Shown: positions 3,174 through 22,355 of the stretch, piece after piece | Layout of the letters: each line of letters begins with the position of its first letter | How positions within the stretch are numbered: position 1 is the first letter of the stretch | NCBI GenBank assembly: GCA_000091205.1 | Contig: AP006496.2 | DNA length: 64,000 bases | Strand: one strand, 5' to 3' | Source: Cyanidioschyzon merolae | Lineage: Eukaryota | Notes under the pieces: model-generated | Told to the model about the DNA's origin: nothing | Database searches by the model: none | The model's input: only the letters and a program-made list of their open reading frames with translations | Translations under genes and position numbers: made by a program

Positions 3174-3764
3174 GCGCGTTTCACTCGGACACTGGGTGCT
3201 CGATGAGAACGGCAGGCGCTTGTGTGGCAAATGTACCACCGCACAGTGGCACCCTATGCACAGCTCACGTCTTTTGGTTACAGGCACCGCAGCTGGGTAC
3301 CGTGAACGGCAACCCGCAGTGTGTGCACCTTAAGGAGAGTCGCTGCGTTATCATGCATCTAAGGCATGGACGCTTGGCTGCCTGCGAATACGCTTGCTGT
3401 CGTTGTCCGTTGCCTTTTCCGCTGGACGCTTTCGAGTAGATCGCTTTGCGGCACGTTGGCAGTCATGGCGGGTACACGCTGCCGCGCGCCCAGCGTAGCA
3501 CAGATGCATGGATCGACTTCATCGTGGACTGCAACTTAGGAAGAGGCAACCGCTCGCGCAGGGTGGATCGCTGAAACGCTCTCCTCCAGAGCTCGCATGA
3601 ATCACTCGAGACGTTTTTCGGAATAAAATGGAACTGGTCAGATTTACAAACTCGGGCATAAACGCTCAATTTTGGCGCTTTTTCCACTGTTTACAAAACG
3701 AGCGTTGGCGGGCCTGTTGATGCGACTGCTTTGCTTGCCTCTCTCTCTTCTCTCAGACTTTGAA

Positions 3765-4369
3765 TACGCGAGTCTGTCCTGTCTCCCGGGCTCTCACTTG
3801 CCAGCAGTCGAAGGATGTTGATGGCAGCGTTCAGGTCCCGATAAAGCCGCAGGCGGATGTTGCCGATGCGTTTTACGCACATAGAAGGAAGTTGAGATCT
3901 ACGTCTCGCTTCCCGGTTCCATGTTCTTTGCAGAAAGTGTTGTTGCCCCCGTGGCGGCGGCGACACTGGGACGCCGCCAGGTGTTCCCGTACGTCCAGCA
4001 TGCCTGCTCCGCCGAGCCGTGCTCTGTTGCGCTTGAACGCTTGCGTCAACGCTCAGTCCATATTCTTGACAGATAGAGGGGGCTGTCTTCGATGCCCTCC
4101 TCAGTTTTCCGGTCCCAGTGCCATAACCCAGTAACAAGGGATTCTTCAAGGCGATTCCCTTCGGCAAGTGCACCGTGCGCTGCACACGCAAGCGCACGCT
4201 TACCAATCCGATAGACGATTTGTTCAAAGCGATGCTGGTCATGGTGAAACAAGTACCGCAAACAAAATCCGGACTGGAGATAGAATCGAGCAATGCCGAT
4301 TCGGTTGCGGTCCTGACGTTCCAAGCGCTGACGCATTCTGTCCTGGAAGCGATCGCTACGATGGCTCAA
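3765..4369 (-). pseudogene. Decayed TnpB/Fanzor-like (IS605 OrfB family) C-terminal fragment, copy A.
   Basis: Minus-strand frames encode 'HRSDRFQDRMRQRLERQDRNRIGIARFYLQSGFC' (a RuvC-II-like 'IGIE' degenerated to 'IGIA'). About 130 aa downstream, in a shifted frame, they encode 'CVKRIGNIRLRLYRDLNAAINILRL', which is the RuvC-III 'D.NAA.NI' signature. Frameshifts are present. The fragment is similar at DNA and protein level to copy B at 20187-20766. Confidence 0.5.
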
Positions 4370-5106
4370 GTCCGAGTCAAAGACCTTTTTCCATGCAAGC
4401 AGATGAGGCGAGCACCTCTGAGGGCAAATCCCTTAACAGGTGTCATGTTACTGGCGAGCGCCGTCTCCTCGATGGAAACAAATGGAGTAGGATTTGATTA
4501 CCAAAATCTATGGAATGCAGCATCCCGTTCGGTGCTCCGTGACGTTTCGGCATGAGCTTGTGAACACGTTGCCGAGAAGCCACGTCGAGTTTCTTTCGAT
4601 GTCAATCCAGCGGCGTGAATTGCTGCCTCCACGATACGCCGTACCCCAGAACGATTGAAAACGTATAGCATGCATAGTTTCGGCATGCTTTTCGTGTGAA
4701 AATGCGACGCATATCACTTTTTACTTACGAACTGGATACCGATATCGTATAGTTTCGGAATCCGTGTTCGAAGGCGCCACAAATGATCCTGGTTCCTATA
4801 TCAAAACGAATTCCAGCGGCGAATCGTCGAATGAGCGCCACTCCGATACCACGGACTCAGAATCCGAATTTCTCGCATGATTCCGTAACAAGTGGCCGTT
4901 ACATTTCAAATGCTGAGCGTGCATATCTGGAAACACTTCACAAAATCAAAGTGCTGAAACAGAGTCCACGGGTCAGTGTTCCATGTTCATCCGGCAAAGA
5001 CATGGATGCCTTGCATGGAACCGAGCGCACAGCGCCAGGTCACAGCACACCGCAGCCGCTCAAAAAAGCCATTCCCCACTTAGAAAAAAAGCGCTTCCGC
5101 TTGAGT

Positions 5107-8100
5107 TTACGGATCGATTTCAGGATGCACAGAATCGGGTTCTGCCTCCAGAGCGCTGCCGCTGGTTGCCGTCATTGAAAGTGCGCGGCCCTTCCGACTT
5201 GACTGACGATGGCGTCGCTGGGGTGCATGCTCACGAAGGAGCGCACGGAATCGAGCGCTAGCACGTGGCCCCAGAGAGTACACAAGTCGACTGAACTGAC
5301 CGTCTGGACGTGTGGAGAGCAGCTCCTCGGGATCGCCGTACTCCGCCACGCGCCCATGATGCATGACGAGGCAGGTGTCGAACGCGGCAAGCGTAAAGAG
5401 GCGATGCGCAATCGCCAGCAAGGTTGCATCCTCAAACTGCTGCCGAATAACGTCCTGAATGACCTTGTCGGTTTGAAAGTCCACACTAGAGGTGGCTTCG
5501 TCGCTGATGAGAATCCGCGGATGCCGCAACAGCGCCCGAGCCAGACAGATTAACTGCCTCTGGCCAGCGGATAGGTTCTCTCCGTACTCGGCGACCTGGG
5601 CCTCGAGGCCACCGGGCATAGCGTGCACTGCGTCGTCCAAATGGGCGTAGCGCAGCGCACTCCAGAGCTCCGCGTCTGTGTACAGCCCAAACGGATCCAA
5701 ATTGAGTCGAATGCTCCCCGAGAAAAGCACCGGATCCTGCGGTATAATCGTGAGCCGGGAACGCAACGAGCGCACTCGCAGTTTGCTGATATCGAGTCCA
5801 TCGATGAGGATGCGACCCATCGGCTTGCCTGTCGTTTCATTCACTGGTATCTCGACGAGTCGAAAGAGCGCGACAATGATGGAGGACTTGCCGGAACCCG
5901 TGCGTCCCAGGATACCGACACGTTCGCCACCGGCGACGCGGAACGTCACATCCTGCAGCACTAACGGCAACTGAGGACGATACCGCAGCGAAACGTCCTC
6001 GAAAACGATTTCGCCCACCTGGGGCCAACTGGGAGGCGGCTCCTCGCCGTCCAGGTTCTCGTGCGGAATCGAGTCCGTGTAGTAAAAGTTGCGCTCCACC
6101 GAGTTCATCAGCTGCTCGACTTCGGTGATCGATCGCACCGCTAAACTCAGCGCCGACGTCACCTGGAGCGCGTAGGTAAGCGCCAAGCCAGTCAACCCGA
6201 CGTAGGTGGTGTTCTTGGAGGTCACTCCAAAGATCCCCGTGATAAAGACCAGAAGAGCGCCGAGCACCTCGAGACGCAGCGCAAGCCAACGGTTGCCGGT
6301 TACCTGGTGGTAGTAAGCTCGCTGGTTGATATCGATGCGGAAGCGGTTGACCGCTTGCATGTAAGCCTGTCGACGGTAGGCGCGGATGGTGGTCAGTCCA
6401 TTCAGGGTTTCGCTAAAGTGACTGTAGATGGGACCCTTGCTGATGCTGTCCAGCCGCCGAAACTGAATATTCGCGGGATTATAGATCTGCTGCAGCACGA
6501 AATACAGCACAGTAATGGGCACCATGGCCGCCACGAAGATCGGAAATATAACAGCGATGAAAACATAGGCGGCAATGATCGAGGCGATCTGCTGCAGGAA
6601 TGAGATGTACTGCTGCGGTAACTGAAAGTCAATCTGCATGATATCGCGACTGAAGCGAACCAGAATACGTCCGACAGGTGTCACATCGTAAAAGGCCATT
6701 GGTGCTCGCAGCACCGAGTCCAGCAGCTCTGCATGCAGGTAACGCGCCGCTACCAGCGTCAACAGCAGAAACCAGTACGTGCGGAAGAAAGAGATAATCG
6801 CGTGACCCGCGGCAAGCGCGAAGTAGATGCCGAGGAAGAAGCCCAATGTGTACTGCTGCTCGTGCTCGCTCCAGAAGCTGAGCCACCAGTTGTTGACCAC
6901 TGCCTCGCCGGCCGACACAAAGAATAACGACAAGATCGCGATGAAGAGATACGGATTCCCACAGCGCTTCGCATAGCCCCAGTAGACGGAGAGTGCTACG
7001 TGACCTTTGTTGATTTCCTCGGTAACGACCAGCTGACCCCTGTCAGTGGATTTCTGGGTTTCACGTCCAGTGACGCTCGGGTCGCCGCTGCCGACGCCAC
7101 TGCTTGAGAAGAAACTCGTTCTCTCTTTCGTTGATTCCGAGCGTTCTCGATGCCCGTCTGCGTCGTCTGCGTCCAGCCGGTGGAGGTCGTCTTCGGCGGG
7201 TTCGGTGTTCGGATCCCCGACCTGCGTCTTGGATTGCGTGGAACGCGTCGCTGTCATTGCCGCAAGCATCTCCACAAAGCGCGGTGAGCTCGTTGTCAAG
7301 TGCTGCAACGTCCCCTGACCTGCGATGCGGCCATTTTCCATCAAAACAATCCAGTCACAACGCGAGGCATACTGCAGATGATTGGTGACCAGCACTCGCG
7401 TCTTACGTCGTAGGACGCCGTGCTCGTTGGAGAGAATCTTCTGAAAGACGTGATCTCCGACATGCGCATCCAGGGCGGATAGCGGGTCATCCAAAATGTT
7501 CACATCTGCATTTGCGTACACGAGGCGAGCCAGACTGACGCGTTGCTTCTGTCCACCGCTGAGGTTGATTCCTTTTTCACCAATCTCAGTCAAGTCGCCA
7601 GCTGGTAAAATCTCCAAGTCGGCATTCAGCGCACTCACGTATATGGCTCGCCTGTATCGCTTTGGTTCATATGGAAGCCCGAAGAGAATATTGTCGCGCA
7701 CTGTCCCGTTATAGATCCAAGCTGCTTGTGCAGAATAAGCCACAGAGCCGTGAACCCGAACCGTGCCCGATCGTCGTTGCAGTTCGCCGAGTATGGCGGA
7801 CACCAGCGATGACTTACCAGAGCCGACGCGCCCCACAACAGCCACTAGCGCGCGTGGCGGTATCCGCAGGTTCACATCTTCCAGAGCGGGTACAAACTCG
7901 ACGGGTTTCAATCGCACCTCCGGCTGGGGAGGTTGTCTGCGCAGCTCGCGTCGATGCCAGAGGCGCTGGAAAAGCGCTAGGCGGCGCTTGGGCAGCTGCT
8001 GTCCTTCTGTGGCAGAAGCAGAGGCAGAAGCCGGAGCTGGCTGCTCCTTGCTGAGCGTCCAGTCGAAGCACCCGTGCTCGATCTCGATGACGTACATGGG

Positions 8101-10542
8101 CTCCTTCCGAAACGACGACGACGCTCTACCCAGTCCTGAGCTGAGATCCTTGCTAGGCTTATCGAGCAGCATTCCGGTGCCCTGGCCGTTCTCTGCTGTA
8201 TCTGTAGAGTCCATCAGGATTGTACTCGTTTCAGCTTGCTCGTGAAAAGCCGCTGATTCGCCTGGGAGCTCAATGGACGGACCCCAGTGCAAGGCGCCAG
8301 GCAGCGATGATGCTTCCTCGGCAGGAATCGCTCCAGAGGGTTCGCGAGCTCGCGTCATAACACTACCGCTGGCATCAGCACCATCAATTGCATCTGTTGG
8401 ATGCTCAGACGATGGTGCGGAGTGCTTGGCGGCTCGCTCGACCGGTTTCCGCCAAAAGAAACGCCAACGGGAGCGGGTTGACTCGGGTTGGTGCGGTGCA
8501 GGCGGCACCTGCGCATCTTCAGCAGACGGTGTTCGCTTCTGTTTGTCTGTTAGCTTCTGAGCGGGATCGCCCATGAGGTCGGAGCTTGAACTCGAGCTCT
8601 TTGCATCCGTGCTAAGACGCTCCGTCGCTGGAGAAGGCTCGATTTCCTCCAGCGCGAAAAACCGCTGCAAACGCTGAACGCCGATGCGGGCATCCACGAG
8701 CGCAGTAAATACGAACGGATACTGAATCAGCGGAAAACGCAAATTATTCAGCACGCTCAGTCCAGCAAAAATAAACGCTGGGTTCAGTTGGTTGTGAAAT
8801 ACGCCACCATAAAACCCAAACGTCACCGCAGAGACGAGCACTGGCGTCACAAATAGCACCACGTAGAAGAGGGTGCGAACAAAAACAGTCCTGCGGTAAG
8901 CGGCAAGTTCCTGCTCCCGAATCTCCGTAACTTTGACGGCAAATGGCTCTTCCCAAGCATAGAATTTCAGCGTCTTGATGCCTTGAAACATTTCATTCAA
9001 GAGTTTCACTCGACGGTCAGTGATTCCGAAGGTTAGCCTGCGAAATCCCGACAGTCTCTTCACCAGGTATCCTTGAAGCGGCACCGTCAGCACCGCCGCG
9101 AGGAAGCCAATGAGGCCGCTATAGCCCAAGTATACAATGAGCAGGGCAAGTGCTCCACCGATCTGCAAGAGCGCAGCCCAGAGGACGTGGGCATACTGCA
9201 TAAAGTCACTCAGACGCTGAGCATCGAGCTGCATATGGTTCACGACTTCACCTGTGGTGGTCTGCGCGCGCGCACTTGCGCTCAACCGCAGCGACTTGTC
9301 GTAGACCGCGGACTGAACCTCTCCACGAATTCGCACCGCCAACCGAAACGTCAGGTAAAAGTATTGGTTCTCCACGAACGCTTTCAGGAACGGGGCCAGA
9401 AAGATTGCAAGCACCCAGAGATACCCCTGGTATGTGGGCGCTCCGGGCGTTTCCAGCCAGATCAAGAGCTTGTTCAGGAAGACTGGAGAAACCTGACCTA
9501 GACCGACATCAAAGAATTTCAGGATACCGGACACAATGATAATGCGCGTGTGCACCCGCAGGATGACCCAGAACATGGGCCAACGCGAACGTCGCTGGAT
9601 GCGGAGCTGCTCCTCATCAACATGGTCCAGAGAGTCGTCTTTGCGGGGCGCAACTCCGTCGAGTGCACCAGTTTTCGCTGTTCGAGCTTGACGCTCGCGT
9701 TCCAACTCTCTGGTAATGCGTTCCTCCTGACGTTCCAGGAAATCCACCCAGGCCACTGCAAAGCGCTCGGACAGCGGCTGGGCGCGATCATCCGGTGCCA
9801 GTTCATACAGGTCGGAGTCGTCCAGGGTTCGACGCCAACCACGCCATATGAGGGAGCCGAACCACCAAAATGTCCACCGCGAGAGCCAGGATGCCTCTAA
9901 TTCGGGGAGCGGCTTGCGCGATGCCGAGTCTCCTGTTGCCGTCAATGCTGCCGCTTCAGCAATCCTTCGCATTTGGTCCTGAGCGTACCGGTGATAGTCC
10001 GTAACGCCAGCCTGGCGTCCCTGGTATTGAAAGTATGCAGAGCCGGCTGTGGCAATGGCTGATGTGGACTGGCTCTCTAAAGCGTCTGCTGCATGCTTCG
10101 GGTGTTTCTCCTGCGACGCCGGATCAATCCCAATACCATCTGCTTGCGCTGCTTCCTGAACCGCAGTGCGAGGCACACCGTCCACATTTGGATCTTCTTC
10201 AGCTGCGAGCGGTGTAGAGAGCACTTCATGACGCACCAGCGACATCCGCTCCCGTCCAAGAGTCAGATCATTCTGTTCGGCTGTTTCCGCGACAGCAATA
10301 TCCAGCTGCTCGGCGAATTCATCGTCCGGTACTGATGGCTGTGCTTCGTGTACACTTTCTGCAGGCTGCCCTGAATAGGGCCACTCCGGCTGAGCGCTAC
10401 GGGAAGCGGATGCGTCAGCCCCATGTCGTGCTGCTGTTTCTTGAACACCTTCGCGATCAGCGGCGCCTTCCCCGTTTTGACCTGGTTGTGTGTCCATAGC
10501 CAAGTCGTGTTTCGCGTTTGCACGTCCAGTCGGCGGCGACAC
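5107..10542 (-). CDS. ABC transporter of the ABCC/MRP type. Full transporter with TMD-NBD-TMD-NBD and long low-complexity inserts.
   Basis: 1811-aa ORF. Two Walker A motifs ('GRVGSGKSS', 'GRTGSGKSS') and two ABC signatures ('LSGGQKQRVSLARLVY', 'LSAGQRQLICLARALL'). Walker B motifs 'ILDDPLSALD' and 'ILISDEATSSVD'. Membrane domains carry typical ABCC helices. There is a long S/E/P-rich linker between NBD1 and TMD2. Confidence 0.9.
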   Translation of the reverse strand: MSPPTGRANAKHDLAMDTQPGQNGEGAADREGVQETAARHGADASASRSAQPEWPYSGQPAESVHEAQPSVPDDEFAEQLDIAVAETAEQNDLTLGRERMSLVRHEVLSTPLAAEEDPNVDGVPRTAVQEAAQADGIGIDPASQEKHPKHAADALESQSTSAIATAGSAYFQYQGRQAGVTDYHRYAQDQMRRIAEAAALTATGDSASRKPLPELEASWLSRWTFWWFGSLIWRGWRRTLDDSDLYELAPDDRAQPLSERFAVAWVDFLERQEERITRELERERQARTAKTGALDGVAPRKDDSLDHVDEEQLRIQRRSRWPMFWVILRVHTRIIIVSGILKFFDVGLGQVSPVFLNKLLIWLETPGAPTYQGYLWVLAIFLAPFLKAFVENQYFYLTFRLAVRIRGEVQSAVYDKSLRLSASARAQTTTGEVVNHMQLDAQRLSDFMQYAHVLWAALLQIGGALALLIVYLGYSGLIGFLAAVLTVPLQGYLVKRLSGFRRLTFGITDRRVKLLNEMFQGIKTLKFYAWEEPFAVKVTEIREQELAAYRRTVFVRTLFYVVLFVTPVLVSAVTFGFYGGVFHNQLNPAFIFAGLSVLNNLRFPLIQYPFVFTALVDARIGVQRLQRFFALEEIEPSPATERLSTDAKSSSSSSDLMGDPAQKLTDKQKRTPSAEDAQVPPAPHQPESTRSRWRFFWRKPVERAAKHSAPSSEHPTDAIDGADASGSVMTRAREPSGAIPAEEASSLPGALHWGPSIELPGESAAFHEQAETSTILMDSTDTAENGQGTGMLLDKPSKDLSSGLGRASSSFRKEPMYVIEIEHGCFDWTLSKEQPAPASASASATEGQQLPKRRLALFQRLWHRRELRRQPPQPEVRLKPVEFVPALEDVNLRIPPRALVAVVGRVGSGKSSLVSAILGELQRRSGTVRVHGSVAYSAQAAWIYNGTVRDNILFGLPYEPKRYRRAIYVSALNADLEILPAGDLTEIGEKGINLSGGQKQRVSLARLVYANADVNILDDPLSALDAHVGDHVFQKILSNEHGVLRRKTRVLVTNHLQYASRCDWIVLMENGRIAGQGTLQHLTTSSPRFVEMLAAMTATRSTQSKTQVGDPNTEPAEDDLHRLDADDADGHRERSESTKERTSFFSSSGVGSGDPSVTGRETQKSTDRGQLVVTEEINKGHVALSVYWGYAKRCGNPYLFIAILSLFFVSAGEAVVNNWWLSFWSEHEQQYTLGFFLGIYFALAAGHAIISFFRTYWFLLLTLVAARYLHAELLDSVLRAPMAFYDVTPVGRILVRFSRDIMQIDFQLPQQYISFLQQIASIIAAYVFIAVIFPIFVAAMVPITVLYFVLQQIYNPANIQFRRLDSISKGPIYSHFSETLNGLTTIRAYRRQAYMQAVNRFRIDINQRAYYHQVTGNRWLALRLEVLGALLVFITGIFGVTSKNTTYVGLTGLALTYALQVTSALSLAVRSITEVEQLMNSVERNFYYTDSIPHENLDGEEPPPSWPQVGEIVFEDVSLRYRPQLPLVLQDVTFRVAGGERVGILGRTGSGKSSIIVALFRLVEIPVNETTGKPMGRILIDGLDISKLRVRSLRSRLTIIPQDPVLFSGSIRLNLDPFGLYTDAELWSALRYAHLDDAVHAMPGGLEAQVAEYGENLSAGQRQLICLARALLRHPRILISDEATSSVDFQTDKVIQDVIRQQFEDATLLAIAHRLFTLAAFDTCLVMHHGRVAEYGDPEELLSTRPDGQFSRLVYSLGPRASARFRALLREHAPQRRHRQSSRKGRALSMTATSGSALEAEPDSVHPEIDP

Positions 10543-11101
10543 GTCGCCGGACTGAGGCGTCTCGTGAGGCCTCTCGGTACACAGCCAGCGTCAGCGAGAA
10601 CCGGGGCTCGTTGACAATGGTGCTCACGTCGGTGCTAGTCCACCAGTAACGTACTGTGTATATGTCAAAAATGCGTAGTAGGCCTAAATGACTTGAAACC
10701 TTGGGCGATGCGCTTTTCGGTGAATGAGGCGCCGCTTCACGCTCGACGTGGTGCAGCGCTGGAAGCGGCGACCCTGAAGCACGTTCTATTCAAAGTGAAT
10801 CCACCGGTTTTTACCAAGCAGCAACTCTGTAGACTGTATCACGCTCCAATGTATCACACACACACAAGTCACAAGAACCTGACGAAAGTTGAACTTTCTA
10901 ATGGTTCACTGCGTCTCGGCCCGCGTTTCTATGCAGCTGCCTGTAGAGCAGTGGCATTCGGTGGCGTTCCTCGATGAATGACCGGTGCGGCGTGAATCAG
11001 CGCCTGCGCCGGGCGACGACGTGCCGCCAGCCCAGCGCTCCGTTCAGCCAGGGCAGGTGTTGAAGGTATCGCGCGATCACAAGCGTACTTTCAAGCGCTT
11101 T

Positions 11102-11485
11102 CTGTATGCTACTTCCCTGGATGGAAATACCCAAAGCGATGCTTAAGATGCCTGGTTCATGGAGAGGATCTCCAAGTCCCTGAGAAGGCATGTGATAGCT
11201 TTCTGCATGCTACTTCCCTGGATGGAAATACCCAAAGCGATGCTTAAGATGCCTGGTTCATGGAGAGGATCTCCAAGTCCCTAAGAAGGCATGTGATAGC
11301 TTTCTGTATGCTACTTCCCTGGATGGAAATACCCAAAGCGATACTTAAGATGCCTGGTTCATGGAGAGGATCTCCAAGTCCCTAAGAAGGCATGTGATAG
11401 CTCTCTGCATGCTACTTCCCTGGATGGAAATACCCGAAGCGATGCTTAAGATGCCTGGTTCATGGAGAGGATCTCCAAGTTCCTG
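11102..11485. repeat. Minisatellite of 101-bp units in about 3.8 near-identical tandem copies, intergenic.
   Basis: 'ctgYatgctacttccctggatggaaatacccaaagcgatgcttaagatgcctggttcatggagaggatctccaagtccctRagaaggcatgtgatagctYtctg' starts at 11102, 11203, 11304 and 11405, with >95% identity between copies. Confidence 0.9.
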
Positions 11486-13034
11486 GAAAAAAACCAGCAG
11501 TCGCACCGCCTCGCTAGAGCGGCAGTGCCGGTGTCACTGCCATGAAAGGTGCCCCAGCGCCTATTCAAATTAGTGCCTCTGTTTCACGTCGGAGGATCTA
11601 GGAACCTGTAAAGCATTCCTGAGACGCACGCAGATGCTGTCAGTGGCCAACAAAGGTGCTCCAGTGCTTCCATAGACGCCTCCAAGTTCCGCTGGCCCAA
11701 GTTCTATTTACCGATGAGGAATAGACGCTCGATCGATCTGGCGATACGACGTGCATCCAGAGCTGTCCCGAGGACTCGCCGCGTTGCTGCATGCGCCGCC
11801 AAACTGGACCTCGTACAGAGACTCGGCGGCTTTTGAGACAGCATGTTCTTGCAGGAGCGTGCCTGAAGAACAAGCTCGATCGACTGGTACGTGTCGTCGC
11901 ATGCTTCTTAGCGGGATATGAGCATCTCAGATTTTTCCATGCTTTACGAAGAAGAAACTCGACAGACTAGTTTACTTGCTGTGTCTCCTCGTATGCGTCC
12001 GAGCATGAAAGCTATAACTCAGGTTTTCCATGTGACACATGAAATACCGAAAAAGAGTTCTCTTTTTTGGCACTCGCTGACGAGTTTGAATCATTGTGTA
12101 CGCAGCAAGGGCGTATTCTGTACGCAATCCGCAGGGAATATTGAGGTGACGAAACGGCTCGCTAGTACCAGTTGACGCCATCTCGCTACGCTGGCGAAAA
12201 GGAAACATGCCGCCTTTGGGATATCACACCTGCCTTGTGCATTCTCCGATGATGACAATGATCATGGCGTATTCTCGCTATCGAATTCAGATCGGGTCAA
12301 TTGTTCGGACGAAGCGAAACGAATTGAGAGGGCTAAATATGCACGAGAGTCAGCCGCAGCGTCAACAGTTGCATTATACTCGGTACCAGCGCATGCGTCG
12401 CCAGAACAAAAACTGTCCGCGAAAAGACGCACGAGCCACCAGTTCTGTTTCCTCAAGCTATTGAGCATGCCGAGCCTAGCGTTATACGGGTGCATCGCTC
12501 AGCGAGAATCGCTTTTTTACGGTCGTTCCAGGCTGTGCTGAATGCCACATGCTTTGAAGTTCAACGTATGCGAGCGAGATGCATCAGGATACAACAAGCA
12601 GGTAGATGAAACCTGGAGACGCCATTTTCCCCACCGAATGCGAACTAACCCAAGGCCACGCTACTCCAGCCGTGGAGAAGGCGGCACCAACACCGGGGTC
12701 GTCATCCGTGTGGATAAATGTTTTTTGAGCTGATGCATGCATTTCGCATGCGCCGTCGCCACTCATCGACTCTACGCGCTTCCATAGCGTACAAAACTTT
12801 TCAAATCGACTAGATTCGTGCAAGATCCGTGATGCTCTCTGCTAAACTGCACAGTAGCTTGATGCTGTCAGCGTCCATAGCTCCTCCGATGCACAGCGTC
12901 AACAGACAGATGCAACAGGAGCCCAAAGGAGCAGGGCATCCACGGATGCAGCGTCGCCTGGGGTTCGCGTGTGTTGCGGGACGCTCTAAAGCACGAATCC
13001 TTATTGTACTATCATATACATAAATGTACTGTTT

Positions 13035-13946
13035 ATGAATGGCGCCTCGGTGATGGCCACTTCGCGTGCGCGCTGGCGCAGATCGCCCGACGCCCTCACG
13101 CTCTGCAAACGAGCGCTTACGCCCTCGCCTCACGATCAAGACAGTGGATGCCCGATGTTCATTCTCAGCGCGCAACGCCTTTCAGGTACGCAGGTTTTCA
13201 GACGTCTCGCGGAGGGCTGCACCGGTTACTCGGTCTCGAGCGGGTGTCGGCAGCGCCGGCGCTGTTGTCCTGGAGCCCCGCAGCGGCCTCGCCGGGTGCG
13301 GGTCAACGCGCTTCAGTTGCAAAGCGGCCTCGCGGACCCGCTGGACCCCAAGTCTGAAGCGGAAGTACGTGAACACTTACGCTCTAACTCACCTGCAGAG
13401 CGAGCGCTGGGTATCAACTATGCACGCTACCTGGACGAGAGCACTCGCTACGATATCCTTCTGGAGATGATGGAGGATACCGATCCCCAAGTTCGCTATG
13501 CTGCTGTTACGCAGCTTGCAACGGTCGGCTCGCACGATCGCCAAAGGACCCTGAAAGCCGTTCGCAAGATACTATGGAACACAGAAGAGGATGCATCTGT
13601 GCGCGCTGGAGCAGCTGACGTGCTGGGCGGTCTCCGGTTCCACGAGGCCTTCCCAGACCTGGAAAAGCTCTTCCACGAGTCGAAGGACTGGGTGGTGCGG
13701 TTCAGCATCATCGCTGCTCTAGGGGAAATGGGTGTTCGAGAAGCGTTCCCTATACTGGTCGAGGCATTGCATGCGAACAAAGAGCCGCTGGTCCAGCTTG
13801 CAGCGATTGGTGCGCTCGGTGAACTCGGCGATGAACGAGCGCGGGTCTACCTCGAACCGCTCGTGAACAGTTCCGATGCCTCGATTGTGGAGCGAGCGCG
13901 TTTCGCCTTGGATGCCCTGGACGCAAGAGGCAGCGAGCGCACTTAG
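13035..13946 (+). CDS. HEAT-repeat protein of the PBS-lyase / E-Z HEAT-like repeat type, probably plastid-targeted.
   Basis: The C-terminal 180 aa consist of tandem ~30-aa repeats 'D..VR..A..ALG.lg...a...L..ll.D', for example 'DPQVRYAAVTQLATVG', 'DASVRAGAADVLGGL', 'DWVVRFSIIAALGEMG', 'EPLVQLAAIGALGELG'. These are characteristic of phycocyanobilin-lyase-type HEAT repeats. The N-terminus is basic and rich in Ser and Arg. Confidence 0.6.
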   Translation: MNGASVMATSRARWRRSPDALTLCKRALTPSPHDQDSGCPMFILSAQRLSGTQVFRRLAEGCTGYSVSSGCRQRRRCCPGAPQRPRRVRVNALQLQSGLADPLDPKSEAEVREHLRSNSPAERALGINYARYLDESTRYDILLEMMEDTDPQVRYAAVTQLATVGSHDRQRTLKAVRKILWNTEEDASVRAGAADVLGGLRFHEAFPDLEKLFHESKDWVVRFSIIAALGEMGVREAFPILVEALHANKEPLVQLAAIGALGELGDERARVYLEPLVNSSDASIVERARFALDALDARGSERT

Positions 13947-15380
13947 GACGCAACACCACGTCTTCAGTACGAGGCGCTGGGTGTTGGCGGGGAAATGTGA
14001 ACGGTCTCTAAGCAGCCGGGCGTCATGAACTGCGTCAGCGCTGCTTGGATTCTAGACAAGAGACCTTCTACTTAAAGAGTTGGGCATTACTGACTTGGAA
14101 TGGATTGTGAAACCGGCACGAAACGCTCCCTGAACATGCAAAGCACGCTTGGTGCTCTGCGCAGTGCACCTGGCAAAGGCAGACGCAACGGAGCTAGGTG
14201 GAACGTCGCCTGTGAACCCCACAGAAGCATCACATCCAAGAGCGCGAAGTTGCATAGGTAGAGCGCTGCACATCGTGCTTGTTGGCAGCAGAGGCGACGG
14301 GCAGACGAGCGACGCAGATTCCTGCTCCACAAAAAAAAGCAAGCATTGACAGGTTCAACTGCGCTCTGACGATAACCTGGAGAGTGCGTATGTCGCGAGC
14401 TCCTATTCTATCGAGGCTTCATCCAAAATACTGAAAGTCATTCGTGAGATTTTGGGGCGGCGTTTGCACCGCTTCGCTCGAGCCAGAGCTCGAAGGCTTT
14501 CGCGCTCACGAGACCTACCCGTGCTGCGGCGGCACGACACGCGACCACCGTAGTGTCAAGCAGCTTGTGTCCCCACGAGTAGCCTCGAGAGCGTCCGCAC
14601 GATGTATAACCGATGCTTGTGGTGCTAGTTCTCGTGCTCCTGGTAACTGCCTTCAGAAAACGCCTCGAACTGCGTGGAGTTGCATGTGCTGGACCAACGT
14701 AGAAGCGATCCTTCGGATTCGAAAGCCAGAAAACACACAACCTTGAGCTGAGACCCAGATGATACCCGCTTCGACCAGTGCCCTATCTTTCATGAAACTG
14801 AATGAATCGTTGTTTACAGAATCACCGCCCCCGTCAACCATCATGAATATAAAGATGATGATCATAATCAGTGCTTTCGAGTAGGCATGTCGGCGAGGCG
14901 CAGCATAGAATTCTGTTTACATGAACCAGGGATATCCCCGATGTAGCATCACCATGGTTAACGGCATCTGGGAGAGCGTCCGCCATGATCATGCACGAGA
15001 CCTCCGAGCCCCAGCGGTAACCAATGGTACTCCCCTTTGGCAATTATGGTTCGTTTGTACAGTCCTCCGAATGCTGAATGCCTGCCGCCGCAGCACCGAA
15101 CGTCGCAGCGCTCCCAGTCGACGTAAACGCAAGATCCAGGGGACTGCAGCGTGCCGCAGCGCGTTCAAGTCCACAGCACCAGCTCCAGTGAAGCGCTGGC
15201 TGCTCACGAGGTGCATCCGGTTCGTGCCCACGACGACCAACGCCGCTCAACTTGACGCTCGCCAAGCACCGCACCGCGAGCGTCCGTGCCTGGTGCACGG
15301 CATCGATACACAGGTCTGCAAGAAACCTCGTACCGTTCGATGCTCGTGACCCAGAGCGCATCTGTTGCTTGAAAGCGATA

Positions 15381-18300
15381 TCACGCCTGATCCGTGTCCG
15401 AACTGCTGAACGTCTGAACCAGCTGTCGAAGTAGCGGCAACACCGCTGCAGTCTGTTTGCTGTCGATGCCGTCGAACGCGCTTCCTCGTCGCTCGCGTTC
15501 GCGGCGAAGCTGTGAGAACTGCGAGAGTATGCGTAGATATTGCATGCAGGTGGACGCTGCACAACCGCGGGAAGTTGCCTCCTCCAGAATCAGCTCAAGG
15601 ACGCGCTCAACTTGGGGGAGACGCGTTAGCAACACGATCTGGAGCTCAACATTCTCGCGACAGACTGCAGCGGGCGCACAACGGAACAACTCGGGAAGCG
15701 CCTGCAAGAGTGCCGCATCGAGCGACGGGACCGTGCCGCTTCCGGCCCAGTGCTCAGCGAAGCGCCGAAGAACACTCAACGCCGCTCGGGTTAGTGCTGC
15801 GCTTTCGGGTTCGGGGAGCATCGCTGGCGGCCCCGTCGGCTGCCACTGACGAGCAACCAGCTCGATCGACTGGAAATGGATGCCAACCGCCCCAGCGACA
15901 ACAACGTGCAGCAGACACGGCCACAGCCCTTGGTGTGTATCATCCACAATGATCGACGCGAGGCCGTTGTTCAGTAGTTGGCCCAAGTACGTGTAGAAGA
16001 GATTGCGCAATGTGTAGCGCTCGCGTGCCTCTTCCGAAAGCACCGGAGTACCGCTGGGAGCACCTCGAGAAGTGCTCACGTTAGGTAATCGTCCATCAGT
16101 CGACTCTGCGGGCGCATCCGCTGGAAGCAGCGGAAACCAGGAGAGCAGTGCTCGCACGAGCGGCTCGAAAAGGCGTCGCTGACTGGAAACACAAGCCGTC
16201 TGAAAGCGATCACATAGTTGATTCTCTAACAGCACCAGTGCCTGCAGATCCTGTTCAAGCGGCAGCGCTTCTCTGCCGAGCTCCAGACGCGTCTCGATGA
16301 ATGTGGCGATGCGGTCGCCTGTTTGCGGCTCCGACAGCAGCTCCGCAAGTCGGTGCAGCAGCGGACGTGCGTCTGCGTCCAGCCCATAGGCTGGACTTGG
16401 AGCTGCTTCGAGGACCCAGTCCAGACAGGTCAACCAGATCTGGCTCAGACGCACGTCCTGCTGGCACTGGGCCGGAGAAAAGCCCTTGCTCAGGTGGAGT
16501 ACTGCACGCAAACCGGATGCGCTGCGAAAGAGGCCGCTGCTATGCATGGGAACGAGGCAACTTTCCAGGTAATGGAGGCGGGTATCGGCGGAGAGTGCTT
16601 CACTGGAAATCAGCAGCGAGATGCACTCCACCAGTGGTAACTGTACCAGGTTCAGATCGGGGTCCTGGCCGTCCAGATGCACCAGGTCTTGGAAATGGTG
16701 CAGCAGGTACTCTACCCGGAAACGTCCGTTCTGAATGAGCATCGACGACAGCGCTGCTGAAGGCACACGCTCTGGCAATAAGCTTTTCCAGCCAGTCGCC
16801 ACGCGGGTCGCGCTATCCGCTGGGATGCCGCTGTCTGCGGGCGAGGGTTCGCGGCGTGTTCCTGTTGCAGCGACCGGAGCAGCGGCAACGACCCCGGCTT
16901 GCTCGCGGATGTGTTCAGGGTCGCGCGGGAGCACATCGCGGAGCGCCTGCACCAGTCGCACACAGGTATTCGCAGCATGCTCGCGCAGACGAGTGCTCTC
17001 CGACTGGAGCGAAGAGACGAGCATCGGCAACACGTACGCATACAGCGGGGGCGACTTTGGTAGCAGCACCGCACCGAAACGTGCAACCACATCAAAGTAG
17101 ACCAAATCCATCACCGGATCACTGAGCACCTGGCGAGCATTCTCCAGCACAAGTTCGCGGGCGTTTTCCGGGAAGCTGCTCGCGAGCTCGAGCAGCAGAC
17201 GTGCTTGCAGCCGTCGGGCCGGCAGTTGTTGCAGTGTTTCTAGCACCAATGTCGGGGAACGTTTCACCACATGACCCAGTACGCTCATGATCTCGGTGGA
17301 GCAATCGTCACTGCTGGTACTCAGCTGACTCACCGCGTCGCTTACCTGATCCCTCGCAAGAGTCGGTGCCTCGTGGACTGAGGCCAACGGCACGTCGGTG
17401 CGTACGCCGTTCGGTTCACTGGTGGCGGCGTCTGAAGTATCGCGCTCGTTGGTTTCCAGGGCCAGAAGGTGTTGCAGGATCGCCGTTAACAGCCTTCTGC
17501 TGAGAGCGTCCCAGTCGACAGTTTGCAGTCTTCGCGTCAAACTCGACATTGCCGAGAGTACAGGTGCACTGAACAGCAGCGCTTGTGCGTTCGTTGTTGG
17601 CGATGTTGTCGCGCCCAGAAGCGCATCCAGCAGCGTTCGCAACGCGTTTGCCGCCCAGTTGCTGACCGTCGCTTCACTCGTTTCGTAAAGTTCAAGCAGC
17701 TCCATGAGCAATGAGCCCAGTAAGGATGACCACGAAGGCAAAGCATCCGAATCAGCGTTTGACGCATTCATAACGAGCTCAACGAGATGCAACGATTTGC
17801 AGACATGTACTTTCTCTCCCGGATGGGCAACTTTGCGCAAAAGCATTCGCTCTAGAGCTGTCACTGCTGCCGAAACCACCGTCACTGGCCAGTGTTGCCC
17901 CGCTGCGTTTGATACCAGTTGGAGCAGCGGTTGCTGAAACCGCTCCACAATTGCCGAGAGATCCATCCAGAATGCATAGTCCGCGAGCAGCTCTAGAACC
18001 CCAACTACCAGCTCCGTTGTCGATAGCATCGTGCCCGGTTTTTTCGGTTCACCTGAGGAGCGCATCACCGCTGAAACAGCCTCGGGAAGTTCGATACCTT
18101 CCGCATCCGTCTGCAGCGCAGCTCGGAGCAGATATGCCCACCAGTCTAGCAGCAGCAGAGCGGAGCCGTCAGCACGCATGGCCTCCTTCAACCGAGACGC
18201 TTCAACATGCCGCTGGGCTTCGCGGGCGAGCACCTGTTCATGAAGTGCCCGTAAGAAACGCAACATGGCATCCGCATCTAATGCTTGCAATAAATCAACG

Positions 18301-18677
18301 ACAGCATTCGGCCAGTTCAGCGGATATCGCTCTACAACAAGCTCTGCGATCAGCTGTGCAGCTTTGTTCTTCACATAGCCAGGCGCGTGCCCGCTGGTCT
18401 GCGGTGAGCGTGAAAGCGCAAGCACTTGCTGCAAACTCAGTCGTTGTCTCGTGGAAAGCAGCACCTGTAGACACCAAAACACCAGTTCTGGCCTAAGAAT
18501 CCTTTCATCGGACACCGCCAGTGACCAGCAGAGCGTAAAGCCACCGTCCTCAGTAGCGGCGGTGACTCGCTCGAGAACAGCCCGCGCCTCCTCGGCGTGG
18601 CTCGGTGCGATCCCCAACGGTGGGTTCAGCGCGTAGAATGCCGCCAGTTCGAGGTCGCCTGTTGATGGATCGATCAT
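15381..18677 (-). CDS. Karyopherin-beta family protein (exportin/importin-like HEAT/ARM repeat protein).
   Basis: 1098-aa all-helical ORF with Leu-rich HEAT-like repeats along its whole length, and an importin-N-like N-terminal region. The overall architecture matches exportins, but I cannot say which one. Confidence 0.45.
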   Translation of the reverse strand: MIDPSTGDLELAAFYALNPPLGIAPSHAEEARAVLERVTAATEDGGFTLCWSLAVSDERILRPELVFWCLQVLLSTRQRLSLQQVLALSRSPQTSGHAPGYVKNKAAQLIAELVVERYPLNWPNAVVDLLQALDADAMLRFLRALHEQVLAREAQRHVEASRLKEAMRADGSALLLLDWWAYLLRAALQTDAEGIELPEAVSAVMRSSGEPKKPGTMLSTTELVVGVLELLADYAFWMDLSAIVERFQQPLLQLVSNAAGQHWPVTVVSAAVTALERMLLRKVAHPGEKVHVCKSLHLVELVMNASNADSDALPSWSSLLGSLLMELLELYETSEATVSNWAANALRTLLDALLGATTSPTTNAQALLFSAPVLSAMSSLTRRLQTVDWDALSRRLLTAILQHLLALETNERDTSDAATSEPNGVRTDVPLASVHEAPTLARDQVSDAVSQLSTSSDDCSTEIMSVLGHVVKRSPTLVLETLQQLPARRLQARLLLELASSFPENARELVLENARQVLSDPVMDLVYFDVVARFGAVLLPKSPPLYAYVLPMLVSSLQSESTRLREHAANTCVRLVQALRDVLPRDPEHIREQAGVVAAAPVAATGTRREPSPADSGIPADSATRVATGWKSLLPERVPSAALSSMLIQNGRFRVEYLLHHFQDLVHLDGQDPDLNLVQLPLVECISLLISSEALSADTRLHYLESCLVPMHSSGLFRSASGLRAVLHLSKGFSPAQCQQDVRLSQIWLTCLDWVLEAAPSPAYGLDADARPLLHRLAELLSEPQTGDRIATFIETRLELGREALPLEQDLQALVLLENQLCDRFQTACVSSQRRLFEPLVRALLSWFPLLPADAPAESTDGRLPNVSTSRGAPSGTPVLSEEARERYTLRNLFYTYLGQLLNNGLASIIVDDTHQGLWPCLLHVVVAGAVGIHFQSIELVARQWQPTGPPAMLPEPESAALTRAALSVLRRFAEHWAGSGTVPSLDAALLQALPELFRCAPAAVCRENVELQIVLLTRLPQVERVLELILEEATSRGCAASTCMQYLRILSQFSQLRRERERRGSAFDGIDSKQTAAVLPLLRQLVQTFSSSDTDQA

Positions 18678-18929
18678 TCCTCTGGACCGTGAGGTAGAGA
18701 GGACGCGCCTGGCTTAGGATCCACGCTGGGTCCGAAAGCACTGGCCCTTTTAGGGCCTCTCGCCCACGGATGCTGCGGAGCGGGCGCCTCTGGTACAGCA
18801 GACGCGAGCACTGCACTTGAGTGCGTCTTCTGCTTATACTTGGAAGCGCTTGGAACAAATAAAATTCGTCTATGGTGATAGGGCGCTCTGCAGCGCTCCC
18901 GGAAAGGCTAACCGAGTGTACTCCAAGAT

Positions 18930-19308
18930 TGTAGCTCAAGAGCTGGCCGTTGCGGTGTTTGGTTGCTCCGCAAACTCCCCAAGCAAGGTTCACTGATGAC
19001 ACTACAACGACGCTAGGGCAACCCTGCGTTGCGTCTAGAGTCGCTGGTGATTGGTTGTCCAGTTTAGAGCTCAAGAGCTGGCCGTCTGTGCTGATTGGTT
19101 GTTCAGCAACCTCCCCAAGCAAGGCTCACTGGTGACACCACCACGACACTAGGGTAACGTTGCGCTGCGTCTGCAGTCGCTGGTGGCTGGTTGTTCAGCA
19201 ACCACCCCAAGCAAGGTTCACTGGTGACACCACCACGACGCTAGAGTTATGCTGCGCTGCGTCTGTGGTCGCTAGCCAGCGCTCTTCGACAGTCAAACGT
19301 TTCGGTAA

Positions 19309-19343
<35 letters not shown>

Positions 19344-19345
19344 CA
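18930..19345. repeat. Imperfect tandem repeat of ~92-136-bp units in three copies, followed by a 9-bp microsatellite (GTCGTCGGC)x4 at 19308-19345.
   Basis: '(a/c)ctccccaagcaaggYtcactgRtgacacYacaacgacRctagggYaacSYtgcgYtgcgtctRSagtcgctggtgRYtggttgtYcag' recurs at ~18975, ~19111 and ~19203. The shared 'gagctcaagagctggccgt' is at 18935 and 19068. Then 'gtcggcgtcgtcggcgtcgtcggcgtcgtcggc' follows. Confidence 0.85.
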
Positions 19346-20186
19346 GCGGCATGCCCAGCAACGTCGCAGGCAGTGCCGCTGAGAAGGGAGTGCGGCAGCC
19401 GCAGGAAGCGCCTGGCAAGGCTGTTTTCCAGCTCGCTTTACAAAGCGGCTTGCTAGAGACCTCGCAGAAGTCAAGTCTTTTGGCATGCTTTCGTATGGGA
19501 GCTTTTGAGAGAGCCCCCGAGACCTATGAGGGATTCCAGAATATACCAACGAAGGGTGCTTCATCTTCACTCGTGTCGGATGAACACGAGACACTGAATT
19601 GATCGCCCTATACCTGGATGTTGAGCTATTTCGGGTGCTTTTTTAAATGAGCATGCTCGACGTTCGACGTGCAGCAGTAAAGGCGTACCGTTTCAGAGGT
19701 CGTTTACGGAATCTGTGACTCGCTTTCGGAGCGGCGCGTTCGGGTCTACCGCGCTTGGCACGCGGAGCGTCACCTGTAGCAACATGACTCGGTATGCACA
19801 CGAACAAGCGCTCGCGGAATAACAGATATGATTATCCTTTTCAGACGCGTAAGACTCCAGCATTTGCCTTGCCTTGCGTGCAGCATGCTCGAATCGCACA
19901 CATTCTTCAGGTTTTGGATCAGTCGATCCCGAGGCAACTGACGGGCGCTGCCATTCGCGCCACTTTCATACGGAAAGCGGAATCATGGGTGTCGTCGCTT
20001 GACGACTACTTCGAGCGCTCATGCCTCAAGTTCACAGAACATGTCACGTCAAGTAATCGACTCCGATTTGGAAGACAAATGCTCCCCGCTTCGAGATTAT
20101 CGACGGAACCGCGTTCGACAAGAACATCATACCTCAAAGCGGATATGCTCTGGAACGCTGTGGTTGCTTCTATTTGCATGGAAAAG

Positions 20187-20766
20187 TGTCTGGGACACAC
20201 CGAGTTGCGTCATCGTAGCGATCGCTTCCAGTGGGGCATGCGTCATCGCTTAGCACGAAGGGATCGGAGACTGATCGGAATTTCTCGACTCCATCTCCAG
20301 CCTGGATATTTCTTCGAGGACTTGTTTCATCGTAAACAACATCGTTTGCCGCCAATACCCCACTGAACGGAGCAGTGACCGCTCACGCGTGAGCAGCGGA
20401 CACTGCACTCGTCGACGAGATCGTCCAGAACAAGCCTCGCGATCGCTGGGTACGGTACCGAGCACAGCACCAGAGCAAGGCGTCGACGGGCGCCTGCTGG
20501 ACACGTCAGGTGTACGTACTGGTCGATGATGCAACCGTCCACGTGCCACAGCGCGGATCTCGGAGGGGACGGTCTGGTGGCCATACGAAAACACCTGACC
20601 TCAGTCATTTGTCACAGCTGCAAAGCGCGCACCGAGGTTGTAAACGCAGAAAAAGAACACTGCAAGCGCAGTGCTGATCGCAACATTCGTATGAGCCTGG
20701 TATGCGTCGGCAACAGCCGGAGGCGGAGCAACCGGGACCTGCACGCTACCATCAATATTTGTCGTC
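20187..20766 (+). pseudogene. Decayed TnpB/Fanzor-like (IS605 OrfB family) C-terminal fragment, copy B; inverted relative to copy A.
   Basis: 'ELRHRSDRFQWGMRHRLARRDRRLIGISRLHLQPGYFFEDLFHRKQHRL' ends ORF 19794-20366. ORF 20526-20861 then carries 'VICHSCKARTEVVNAEKEHCKRSADRN...NRDLHATINICR' (a CxxC...C zinc finger and RuvC-III). The two parts are in different frames. A (CA)9 microsatellite follows at 20842-20858. Confidence 0.5.
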
Positions 20767-22355
20767 CAAAGGCGACAGAACTGGACGCAGATGCATCGAG
20801 ACCAGTGTACTGGAATCCGGATATACGGGCAACAGAGAGGACACACACACACACACACTGAAACAGTCATCGACGAAAAACGCGTGCAAGCGCTTCTGTC
20901 GATGACACTTGCAAGGCATCCAAACGTTAGCGTCTATACCCAAGTTAGCAAAGCAGACCTATTCGATTTTTTCGCCACGGGTTCAGGAAAGCATCCATCA
21001 TTCCATTCCAGTCACGATACGATCCACGAAACGCAACCCAGAGTTTTTCCTTTGGATTGTGACTCATCCATGCGATCATTCACGAGCCGAGCATTCTGAG
21101 CGTACCCATAGCGCCAGAACGGACACCGCATCGAGACAGAGCGTTTTTTCCGTATCCCTGAGGACATCGGCTCGTGTCATGGTTCAACTGACGCAGTTTC
21201 GTATCTCATGATCATCATCAGTTTGTTCTCCGAGAATCTTTGCATGCAAGACTGCCTTCTCATCAGGACGCTGTTGATGAATATCTGCTTTAGAATGAGT
21301 CCGGGTAACCGAGTCTCAGCTTTGGAATCAAGTCTGGAACGCGTCACCGTTTAGAGACACGAACCTGTGCTCGGCGGAAAACAGAAGGAGGTGCGCGAGT
21401 CGCTGGGCCTGCATGCTCCCGCGGGTCGCGATACCTTCCGCCTCGAGAGTGGTTTGTGTATTTGGTGAGGATATTCGCGAGCGACGTTGCTCGGAAGGTG
21501 AGCCAACGGGTGCAGGCGCTGCGCTCAGTGTGAGCGCTCGCCCCTCATCAACGAAAACTACGTGTAGAAGTTGCAGTCATTCAAAACAGCGGGTTCGCAC
21601 TTTTTGACAACGTGAGCACTGCACGCGTAAGTATGTCAGAGTCTCAGCATTCGCTTCCCGACAGTAGCTGCAGTGAATTCCCAGGAAACCGGGTGGCGTT
21701 CGGATATGACACGGGGCCAGGATCGGTCAGCGGCATTCCAACGTGCGCCTTAGCGAGTCAGAGTGTGTATCGGGTGACGAAAGGCGGCGCCAGCACCTTG
21801 CACCGGTCGTTGTTCGCACATGTTCGATTGTATGCTACAAATAGCGACCAACCAACGTAGGAGACTCGACACTTTCCTCACTGGCAAGTCCATACTATCT
21901 TGCGAACTGTTCTTTGGAGGTATTGAGACCTTCTACGTTCCTAACGAGTGTTTGGAGTCTCTCCGCACCGCGCAGTCGACTCATCTACATTCGCATGCAC
22001 CTGACCCACGTATGCTTTGCATGCTTCGCGGTGAATGTGACATTCCGGTTGAACTAGATTGTCCATGCTGAGCCTTTTAGACCATACAGGTGCTCGGCAG
22101 CCGATCGCTATCGCTTCCTTCGGGACGCTTTGTATTTCACATCCGAGTGCGAGCGGACTGGGTGCAGTCTGCCCTTCTAAACATACAGGCAAGATACGCA
22201 TCACGACGTTGGCTGCAGTCTGCATGCGCGATGCGGGTACGACGTGCGCAGAGCTCACCATTCACCGCTCGAGGTCGCTGCCTAGATGGTACGAATCTCG
22301 GGTACCTTTCCCCAGACCTCGAGTGGTATCGACGAATTCCAAAGGAAGAGATGCA

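Follow-up and report, generated by a model that had tools for sequence, protein, structure and literature searches.

Two decayed stretches on opposite strands of a 64-kb window (the whole stretch of DNA analysed here, part of nuclear chromosome 14 in a red alga, Cyanidioschyzon merolae 10D) are very probably independently inserted, long-dead copies of a ~1.4-kb family of non-autonomous DNA transposons derived from Fanzor1. In eukaryotes the RNA-guided nuclease TnpB is represented by its homologue Fanzor1, and a working Fanzor needs its N-terminal REC/WED half. Copy A occupies ~1.39 kb at 3612-4999 (minus strand) and copy B ~1.41 kb at 19571-20983 (plus strand); both are decayed full-length elements that match positions 2-1384 of a profile hidden Markov model (HMM) of the family in nhmmer searches (E 0 in each case). 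A preliminary description of this DNA had pointed to TnpB/Fanzor-like relics at 3765-4369 and 20187-20766, lying in inverted orientation around a 16-kb gene block; the orientation is as it had said, and the segments are real, covering only ~40% of each element.

A dispersed repeat family bounded by inverted repeats

The homology of the two copies is evident at the nucleotide level, well beyond chance, as the preliminary description had supposed. Default blastn of 3400-4800 (reverse complement) against 19700-21100 returned three colinear matches (175 bp at 74% identity, E 9e-26; 55 bp at 76%; 93 bp at 68%), and the 175-bp match was also found in a blind comparison of the whole window with itself (E 2e-22). 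Realigned with a more sensitive match/mismatch scoring suited to old repeats, A 4689-3625 and B 19882-20970 form a single alignment of ~1105 columns at 60.5% identity (E 7e-71), interrupted by only a handful of indels of 1-2 nucleotides (nt) each; overall, identity is ~60-62% over ~1.1-1.4 kb. One 20-mer, ATCGTAGCGATCGCTTCCAG, is identical in A and B and absent elsewhere in the window, against a chance expectation of 0 matches.

A and B are full-length members of a dispersed ~1.4-kb repeat family and not its only copies: two truncated copies lie in the same window, both on the plus strand. The one at 46220-46737 (C46) consists of the 5' terminal inverted repeat (TIR) and the opening ~516 nt of the unit (HMM positions 3-516 in nhmmer, E 7e-66), and the one at 59768-60097 (D59) of the last ~340 nt including the 3' TIR (HMM positions 1047-1384, E 5e-41); beyond these four, the family HMM found no further significant pieces in the window. 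We considered C46 and D59 as a single element split by a 13-kb insertion and rejected this, the middle 530 nt of the unit being missing and the DNA between them holding host genes (mitofilin, PEX11 and several other long open reading frames (ORFs)).

A scan of public metagenome contigs with the shared 20-mer gave 16 loci, which collapse to orthologues of A, orthologues of B, a B-like copy and two further subfamilies, E (loci L005, L007 and L016) and F (loci L006, L010, L011 and L015). Several of these loci, from hot-spring samples, are 99.3-99.5% identical orthologues of the window region. Across the whole ~1.4 kb, subfamilies E and F each show ~58-62% identity with A and with B, and their flanks are unrelated; indeed, the flanks of the A, B, C46, D59, B-like, E and F copies are all unrelated to each other, and the full-length copies share identical start and end points. 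At least five family pieces fall within ~66 kb (the window and the DNA just to its left), and more loci lie elsewhere.

The unit is bounded by imperfect TIRs of ~21-30 bp, 5'-CCCRTKTCRGAWKAAMATGGAAC ... GTTCCATTTTATTCYGAAAYGGG-3'; when 5' ends are aligned with reverse-complemented 3' ends for A, B, E, F, C46 and D59, a common terminal sequence emerges, CCCRTKTCRGAWKAAMATGGAAC. In copy A, an inverted-repeat search and the alignment of ends place the arms (both on the minus strand, written here along the element) at 4978-4998 (TTTGCCGGATGAACATGGAAC, 5') and 3614-3634 (GTTCCATTTTATTCCGAAAAA, 3'); these terminal arms are 21 nt long with 76% complementarity, and 3590-5020 contains no longer inverted repeat. 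The family thus combines TIRs at both ends of a fixed-length unit with several dispersed copies and unrelated flanks, the pattern by which a non-autonomous DNA transposon of the TIR (cut-and-paste) type is recognised.

Homology of the interior to the C-terminal part of Fanzor1

The preliminary description had assigned both loci to the C-terminal nuclease module of TnpB/Fanzor-type proteins, and profile searches bear this out. An HMM built from nine published Fanzor1 proteins (PMC3627910 supplement), run against 1399 six-frame pieces of the window, ranked B first (E 8.8e-4, piece 20379-20858) and A second (E 6.6e-3), with the next piece at 0.1. A majority consensus of the family, derived purely from the nucleotide alignment with no protein consulted, scored 27.1-29.9 bits against the same HMM (E ~3e-8 for the window search space); the highest score was 8.3 bits among 1000 shuffles and 12.7 bits among 1000 block shuffles. 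When hhalign compared the frame-corrected alignment of the family to that of Fanzor1, the probability was 95.9% (E 5.4e-9) over 187 columns. On these sequence comparisons, the homology of the C-terminal ~190 residues to Fanzor1 is established.

The sense frame of the consensus runs for ~290 codons with three stops, ...HRSDRFQW...KPVFVGYGTGPGNRGGHRREPAVPVRGMY-AMTQAF...GVLDVRKHLTAVKCHRCEGRTE...DRNFRLCMECVGNSRKRRNRDLNATINILRLL, and holds in order the motifs VFVGYGTG, VLDVRKHLTAVKCHRC, RLCMEC and NRDLNATINILRLL. Their order and spacing are those of the Fanzor1 C-terminal signature, which comprises a VxVGYG strand, Glu-x-x-[TS][TS]-x-x-CxxC, a second CxxC and RD (PMC3627910).

Individual copies retain different parts of this signature. 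The VxVGYG strand survives as LLLGYGTGTG in A (4108-4137, minus strand) and as IAGYG in B (20442-20456, plus strand). The RuvC-II position is the (E/K) of VREHLAAS in A and IRKHLTSV in B, beside the zinc finger, with the glutamate kept in A and F and replaced by lysine in B and E. Thus the relic VREHLAASQC of copy A (3963-3992, minus strand) keeps the glutamate, has lost the first CxxC and lies in a different frame from the RuvC-III relic, while that of copy B, IRKHLTSVICHSC (20583-20621, plus strand), keeps [TS][TS]xxCxxC, has the lysine and gives a sub-threshold match to Pfam PF07282. The first half of the zinc finger, [TS]-[TS]-x-x-CxxC, reads KHL-TS-VI-CHSC in B and KHL-TA-VK-CHRC in the consensus; the cysteines are lost in A (AASQCRRR). 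The second CxxC is intact in the consensus only (CMEC, with a CMEI remnant in F), where 9 residues separate it from NRDLNATINIL, within the allowed 5-50. The RuvC-III relics are YRDLNAAINIL in A (3811-3843, minus strand), aligned with the nRDvnaAtNi block of the Fanzor1 profile, NRDLHATINI in B (20730-20759, plus strand), recovered by the same profile, and NPDLNAPSNI in D59 (59875-59904, plus strand), within the final ~340 nt of the unit; A, B and F retain RD, whereas E and D59 have PD.

Much of the preliminary motif reading therefore survives. The peptides it quoted are all present (YRDLNAAINIL and NRDLHATINI as above, and TSVICHSC within 20583-20621), and the frameshifts and loss of catalytic residues that it saw in both loci are confirmed, the loss being partial, as are stops. 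Its zinc finger and RuvC-III hold for RuvC-III in both copies and for CxxC in B, and fail for the first CxxC of A. The stretches it called RuvC-II-like, RNRIGIARFYLQSGF and RRLIGISRLHLQPGYF, were misplaced: hhalign aligns them with a helical region upstream of the VxVGYG strand.

A candidate RuvC-I aspartate, picked by eye, lies in ILHVFDLSVARQLAGAAI (B 19911-19955, A 4618-4665; consensus form ...VFDLSVARQLAGAAI), ~225 residues upstream of the TS motif, the range expected for the Fanzor1/TnpB superfamily being 125-275 residues. Upstream of this candidate the element has room for at most ~105 codons, compared with 350-450 residues in Fanzor1 proteins. This short 5' part is common to all copies and the N-terminal WED/REC half is found in none, so amplification most likely took place as a 5'-truncated, non-autonomous derivative.

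Could the likeness to TnpB/Fanzor be a chance motif match within a non-coding repeat? The copies show neither codon periodicity nor purifying selection (see below), no curated model passes its threshold, and the best-conserved block, the 20-mer with its 10-bp palindrome, resembles a DNA-level signal, all of which fit such a reading. Yet the Fanzor1 profile matches land on exactly A and B among 1399 pieces, the score climbs with the consensus, as real decayed homology predicts, over 187 columns four motifs come in the expected order with the expected spacing, and shuffled sequences score at least 14 bits lower; a chance match is accordingly improbable.

The palindrome merits description in its own right. 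The most conserved block of the family encodes HRSDRFQ (A 4343-4363, minus strand; B 20211-20231, plus strand) and contains the 20-mer (4343-4362 and 20212-20231), which is identical in A, B and all metagenome copies and is centred on the 10-bp palindrome AGCGATCGCT. The core of the palindrome, GCGATCGC, equals the cyanobacterial HIP1 motif.

Decay, spread and alternative explanations

No family copy contains an intact ORF, and stops and frameshifts occur throughout. Copy B has one frame at 19794-20861 with two in-frame stops, and the multiple alignment reveals that its continuity hinges on an insertion of 2 nt that only the B lineage has. The C. merolae genome has almost no introns, so the frameshifts in the copies are not explicable as introns. 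Differences between subfamilies show no excess at third codon positions, and the ratio of nonsynonymous to synonymous differences per site (pN/pS) takes values of 0.79-0.93 for the Fanzor frame and 0.66-1.04 for the other five; this near equality across six frames, with no third-position excess, indicates that the copies have evolved neutrally since they separated. Their ~40% pairwise difference corresponds to ~0.57 substitutions per site (Jukes-Cantor, our own calculation).

One pair departs from this divergence. In metagenome contigs orthologous to the window region, a B-like copy lies in plus orientation ~310 bp beyond the left end of the window (L003 11156-11449, L009 12977-13143, L012 1-167, L014 376-1758), ~21 kb from B and in direct orientation to it. 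The two are 95-98% identical solely across 19647-20972, with both stops and the 2-nt insertion in common; over the initial ~75 nt of the element their likeness falls to ~50%, and they have different flanks. Near-identity so sharply bounded, between old copies 21 kb apart, is better explained by gene conversion than by recent transposition, and B and its near-twin have probably been homogenised in this way. In contig L004, the upstream flank of the B-like copy is the same and the downstream flank different, which may reflect a strain rearrangement or a mis-assembly. Copy B also carries an (AC)n microsatellite at 20838-20857, which is 6 nt shorter in the L004 B-like copy.

These observations suggest the following history. 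The interior of the element corresponds to the C-terminal ~300 codons of a Fanzor1 gene, from after RuvC-I through RuvC-III, retaining the VGYG strand, the RuvC-II glutamate, the C4 zinc finger and RuvC-III and lacking the N-terminal REC/WED half; in its source, this part presumably served a nuclease. The family would have spread as an already 5'-truncated element, moved in trans by a transposase encoded elsewhere. After insertion, the copies have drifted neutrally to ~40% pairwise difference, gaining frameshifts and stops, with probable conversion between B and its near-twin ~21 kb away. The inverted placement of A and B around a gene block is a by-product of a local cluster of intergenic copies.

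Several points weigh against this account. The homology is drawn from a consensus of 4-6 copies and a home-made profile of nine sequences. PF07282 (Cas12f1-like TNB) is the top Pfam family, at 16.4 bits for B (E 0.01) and 19.8-20.3 bits for the consensus, and both miss its gathering score of 26.3 bits; NCBIfam TnpB models match neither copies nor consensus; and sequence and profile searches of the PDB, with its Fanzor, TnpB and Cas12 entries included, returned nothing, the C-terminal piece of B giving only a chance chitinase match with phmmer. Sub-threshold scores with curated models are what is expected of a decayed relic, and we grade the loci as derived from Fanzor1, not as working members. 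The Fanzor1 profile gave no RuvC-I or WED signal in the first 480 nt of the element. The searches recovered no transposase partner and no intact master copy: a k-mer protein search with the conceptual protein of B had no match at E <= 10, the family alignment run against 5.8 billion proteins recovered two short ORFs on copies of the same family only, and viral contigs held no intact relative. The preliminary description had advised looking for TIRs or target-site duplications; the TIRs are there, and no target-site duplication of fixed length is definable across A, B, E and F, the candidates in B (TTCA/TTCA) and F (CGCGTG/CGCATG) disagreeing in length and A and E, like the others too old, showing nothing. 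A TA target duplication is likewise not definable at the family copies. Finally, the degree of conservation varies along the element beyond what column permutation produces, which pure neutral decay from one master does not predict; part of this unevenness is ascertainment, subfamilies E and F having been found through the 20-mer, and the rest hints at a former constraint at the DNA or RNA level.

That unevenness can also be read as a sign of present-day function, with the loci acting as antisense gene, domesticated protein or structured RNA (an fRNA-like transcript, for example). In TnpB/Fanzor systems, the omega-RNA/fRNA scaffold starts inside the 3' end of the ORF, and for the final ~250-270 nt in five copies RNAalifold predicts a long-range helix in which the RuvC-III codons (CGGGAC-x-TGAACGCT) are paired to AGCGTT...CCCG, a site ~200 nt further downstream and close to the 3' TIR. 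Counted alone, this helix is 84.6% paired and has 3 pairs in which both bases have changed; in this test on five related sequences, only 9 of 500 shuffles reached its covariation score. The overall covariation term, from the same five related sequences, is unfavourable, and Rfam has no match across the whole window. The predicted helix is compatible with an omega-RNA/fRNA-like scaffold and is not evidence for one. The consensus also has an antisense open frame of ~293 codons, and transcription is reported for the other, 3.2-kb repeat of this genome (Nozaki et al., PMC1955436), but the antisense ORF has no Pfam match and the antisense frames are neutral, with 3-12 stops in individual copies. 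On balance, a functional role for A or B today is very improbable.

An inverted pair of insertion elements can mobilise the DNA between them, as in composite transposons, and the preliminary description had proposed that A and B might be the ends of one such old insertion carrying the ABC-transporter/HEAT/exportin-T block of 16 kb; the inverted orientation around a contiguous block is what this would predict. Each copy, however, carries a TIR of its own at either end, the window holds two more pieces, another lies just outside it and further loci occur elsewhere, A and B are ~40% diverged, the block consists of housekeeping host genes including exportin-T, and the outer junctions share neither a duplication nor matching sequence. 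We regard a composite origin as barely credible. The five pieces within ~66 kb are a local cluster in which nothing links A specifically to B, so the fallback that it had offered, two dispersed copies, fits the data, and the bracketing of the 16-kb block is coincidental.

A different origin for the family, which we consider a long shot, is an unusually compact, TIR-bounded Fanzor1 element of ~1.4 kb and at most ~370 codons, whose 3' ~230 nt encoded a guide-RNA scaffold and of which an intact or recently active master perhaps survives elsewhere in the Cyanidiales. Were this so, the pairing between RuvC-III and the sub-terminal region would be explained by the scaffold, and the 96-98% identical B-type copies would reflect recent mobilisation, not gene conversion.

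The remaining question is whether the family is one already described. The one Fanzor1 family reported from C. merolae is CMe-1A, 3169 bp long, with ~150 copies that are ~80% identical to the consensus, no TIRs and a 734-amino-acid protein; its first 635 bp also occur as a separate repeat, TE-N2_CMe (PMC3627910). Nozaki et al. (2007, PMC1955436) counted 253 copies, ~5% of the genome, of a 3.2-kb repeat whose truncated ORF bears a weak similarity to WSV486 from shrimp white spot syndrome virus, a virus listed as a Fanzor1 carrier (Bao & Jurka 2013, PMC3627910). From the matching size, the WSV486 similarity and the listing of the virus, we infer that this 3.2-kb repeat is CMe-1A. The view that Fanzor relics would be notable in a transposon-poor alga was thus overstated, CMe-1A having already been described as the commonest C. 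merolae repeat.

One alternative is that A and B are ordinary diverged copies of CMe-1A, the 3.2-kb WSV486-like repeat: the genome and protein superfamily are the same, CMe-1A is itself abundant and only ~80% identical to its consensus (PMC3627910), and among the nine Fanzor1 proteins CMe-1 gives the best pairwise match to our consensus (32% over 63 residues, E 0.005). We tried and rejected this assignment with the CMe-1 protein and CMe-1A DNA consensus from the PMC3627910 supplements, neither of which matches A or B. A tblastn search of the window with the 734-residue CMe-1 found nothing significant (best 0.21, at an unrelated site), and its only contact with the A/B loci is an 11-residue RDxNAAINI match (E 2.8); blastn with the 3169-bp CMe-1A found only the 5' 635 bp (the TE-N2_CMe part), at 1823-2455, and weak unrelated fragments. 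Since CMe-1A is moreover reported without TIRs, which the A/B family has, we give this identification almost no credence; by the papers available, the family is distinct from published CMe-1A. The two share genome and protein family, and both are old and intergenic, whereas the A/B unit is 1.4 kb with TIRs and its copies ~60% identical to each other, compared with 3.2 kb, TIRs reported absent and ~80% identity to the consensus for CMe-1A.

The TE-N2_CMe copy itself, at 1823-2455 (plus strand), is 83% identical to its consensus over 639 columns and lies 1.2 kb from copy A. Weak matches (62-72%) to the first ~530 nt of CMe-1A/TE-N2_CMe occur at 21101-21215 and 21387-21446 (plus strand), just downstream of B, and further such matches at 61658-61840 (minus), 14915-15111 (plus) and 28316-28395 (minus); these may be what is left of older copies of the repeat, or of a repeat related to it.

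In its pattern, the A/B family comes closest to SPu-1 from Spizellomyces punctatus, a TIR-bounded element of ~2.1 kb that encodes only Fanzor1 (PMC3627910); like it, the family is short, TIR-bounded and without a transposase of its own. The family shares with Fanzor1 elements the VxVGYG, (D/N)E-x-x-TS-x-x-CxxC, second CxxC and NRDxNAAxNI motifs, and its spacing of ~45 residues from zinc finger to RuvC-III is that of the Chlamydomonas CRe-type Fanzor1. It differs from them in having only the rear ~300 codons and no intact copy, and any former activity or guide RNA would be predicted by analogy with them. With the TnpB (OrfB) of bacterial IS200/IS605 and IS607 elements it has in common the zinc-ribbon/TNB domain as top Pfam family and the RuvC-III RDxNAAxNI; in contrast, no NCBIfam TnpB model matches it and its host is a eukaryote. 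IS200/605 elements have subterminal hairpins and no TIRs. TnpB was formerly annotated as a transposase, and the family could for this reason be the "eight class II elements" that Nozaki et al. found closest to bacterial transposases (E 0.071 to 6e-7; PMC1955436).

If our reading is right, a second and older Fanzor1-derived repeat family, this one with TIRs, is present in a genome famed for its near-absence of transposons, and Fanzor1 in Cyanidioschyzon has been carried by a TIR-type element as well as by the TIR-less CMe-1A. Fanzor1 genes would then have entered the lineage at least two times, or diversified there for very long, and several intergenic regions of chromosome 14 would be transposon debris, not unexplained DNA. 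No new mechanism follows: Fanzor1 was already known from C. merolae in 2013, and the present copies are dead.

Host genes and other repeats around the copies

All family copies in the window are intergenic. Between A and B lie ordinary host genes, an ABC transporter gene (5107-10542), an ORF for a CpcE-related HEAT protein (13035-13946, plus strand) and CMN254C, exportin-T (15381-18677, minus strand), the last two matching C. merolae 10D proteins exactly or falling into one cluster with them; the preliminary description had listed an ABC transporter, a HEAT-type protein and an exportin, all borne out, the second being CpcE-like and the third exportin-T. C46 is flanked by AIR-synthase and mitofilin genes, and D59 by PEX11 and AATF-like genes.

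An ORF of 416 codons at 22356-23606 (minus strand), 1.4 kb from copy B, encodes a reverse-transcriptase domain (PF00078, E 3e-18) and is presumably one of the 26 non-LTR (long terminal repeat) retrotransposon relics reported for C. merolae; its position makes the region a small transposon-rich patch. Three intergenic tandem repeats were also seen, at 1520-1764 (94-bp unit, 2.6 copies, including a (GCT)n run), at 11097-11484 (101-bp unit, 3.8 copies, 96% identity) and, directly upstream of copy B, at 18933-19273 (136/92-bp units, ~2 copies). At the right end of the window, 63148-63998 has ~70% nucleotide similarity to L007 6085-6987 and L005 2795-3085, that is, to DNA adjoining E-subfamily copies in other contigs, and may be a repeat or a paralogous gene.

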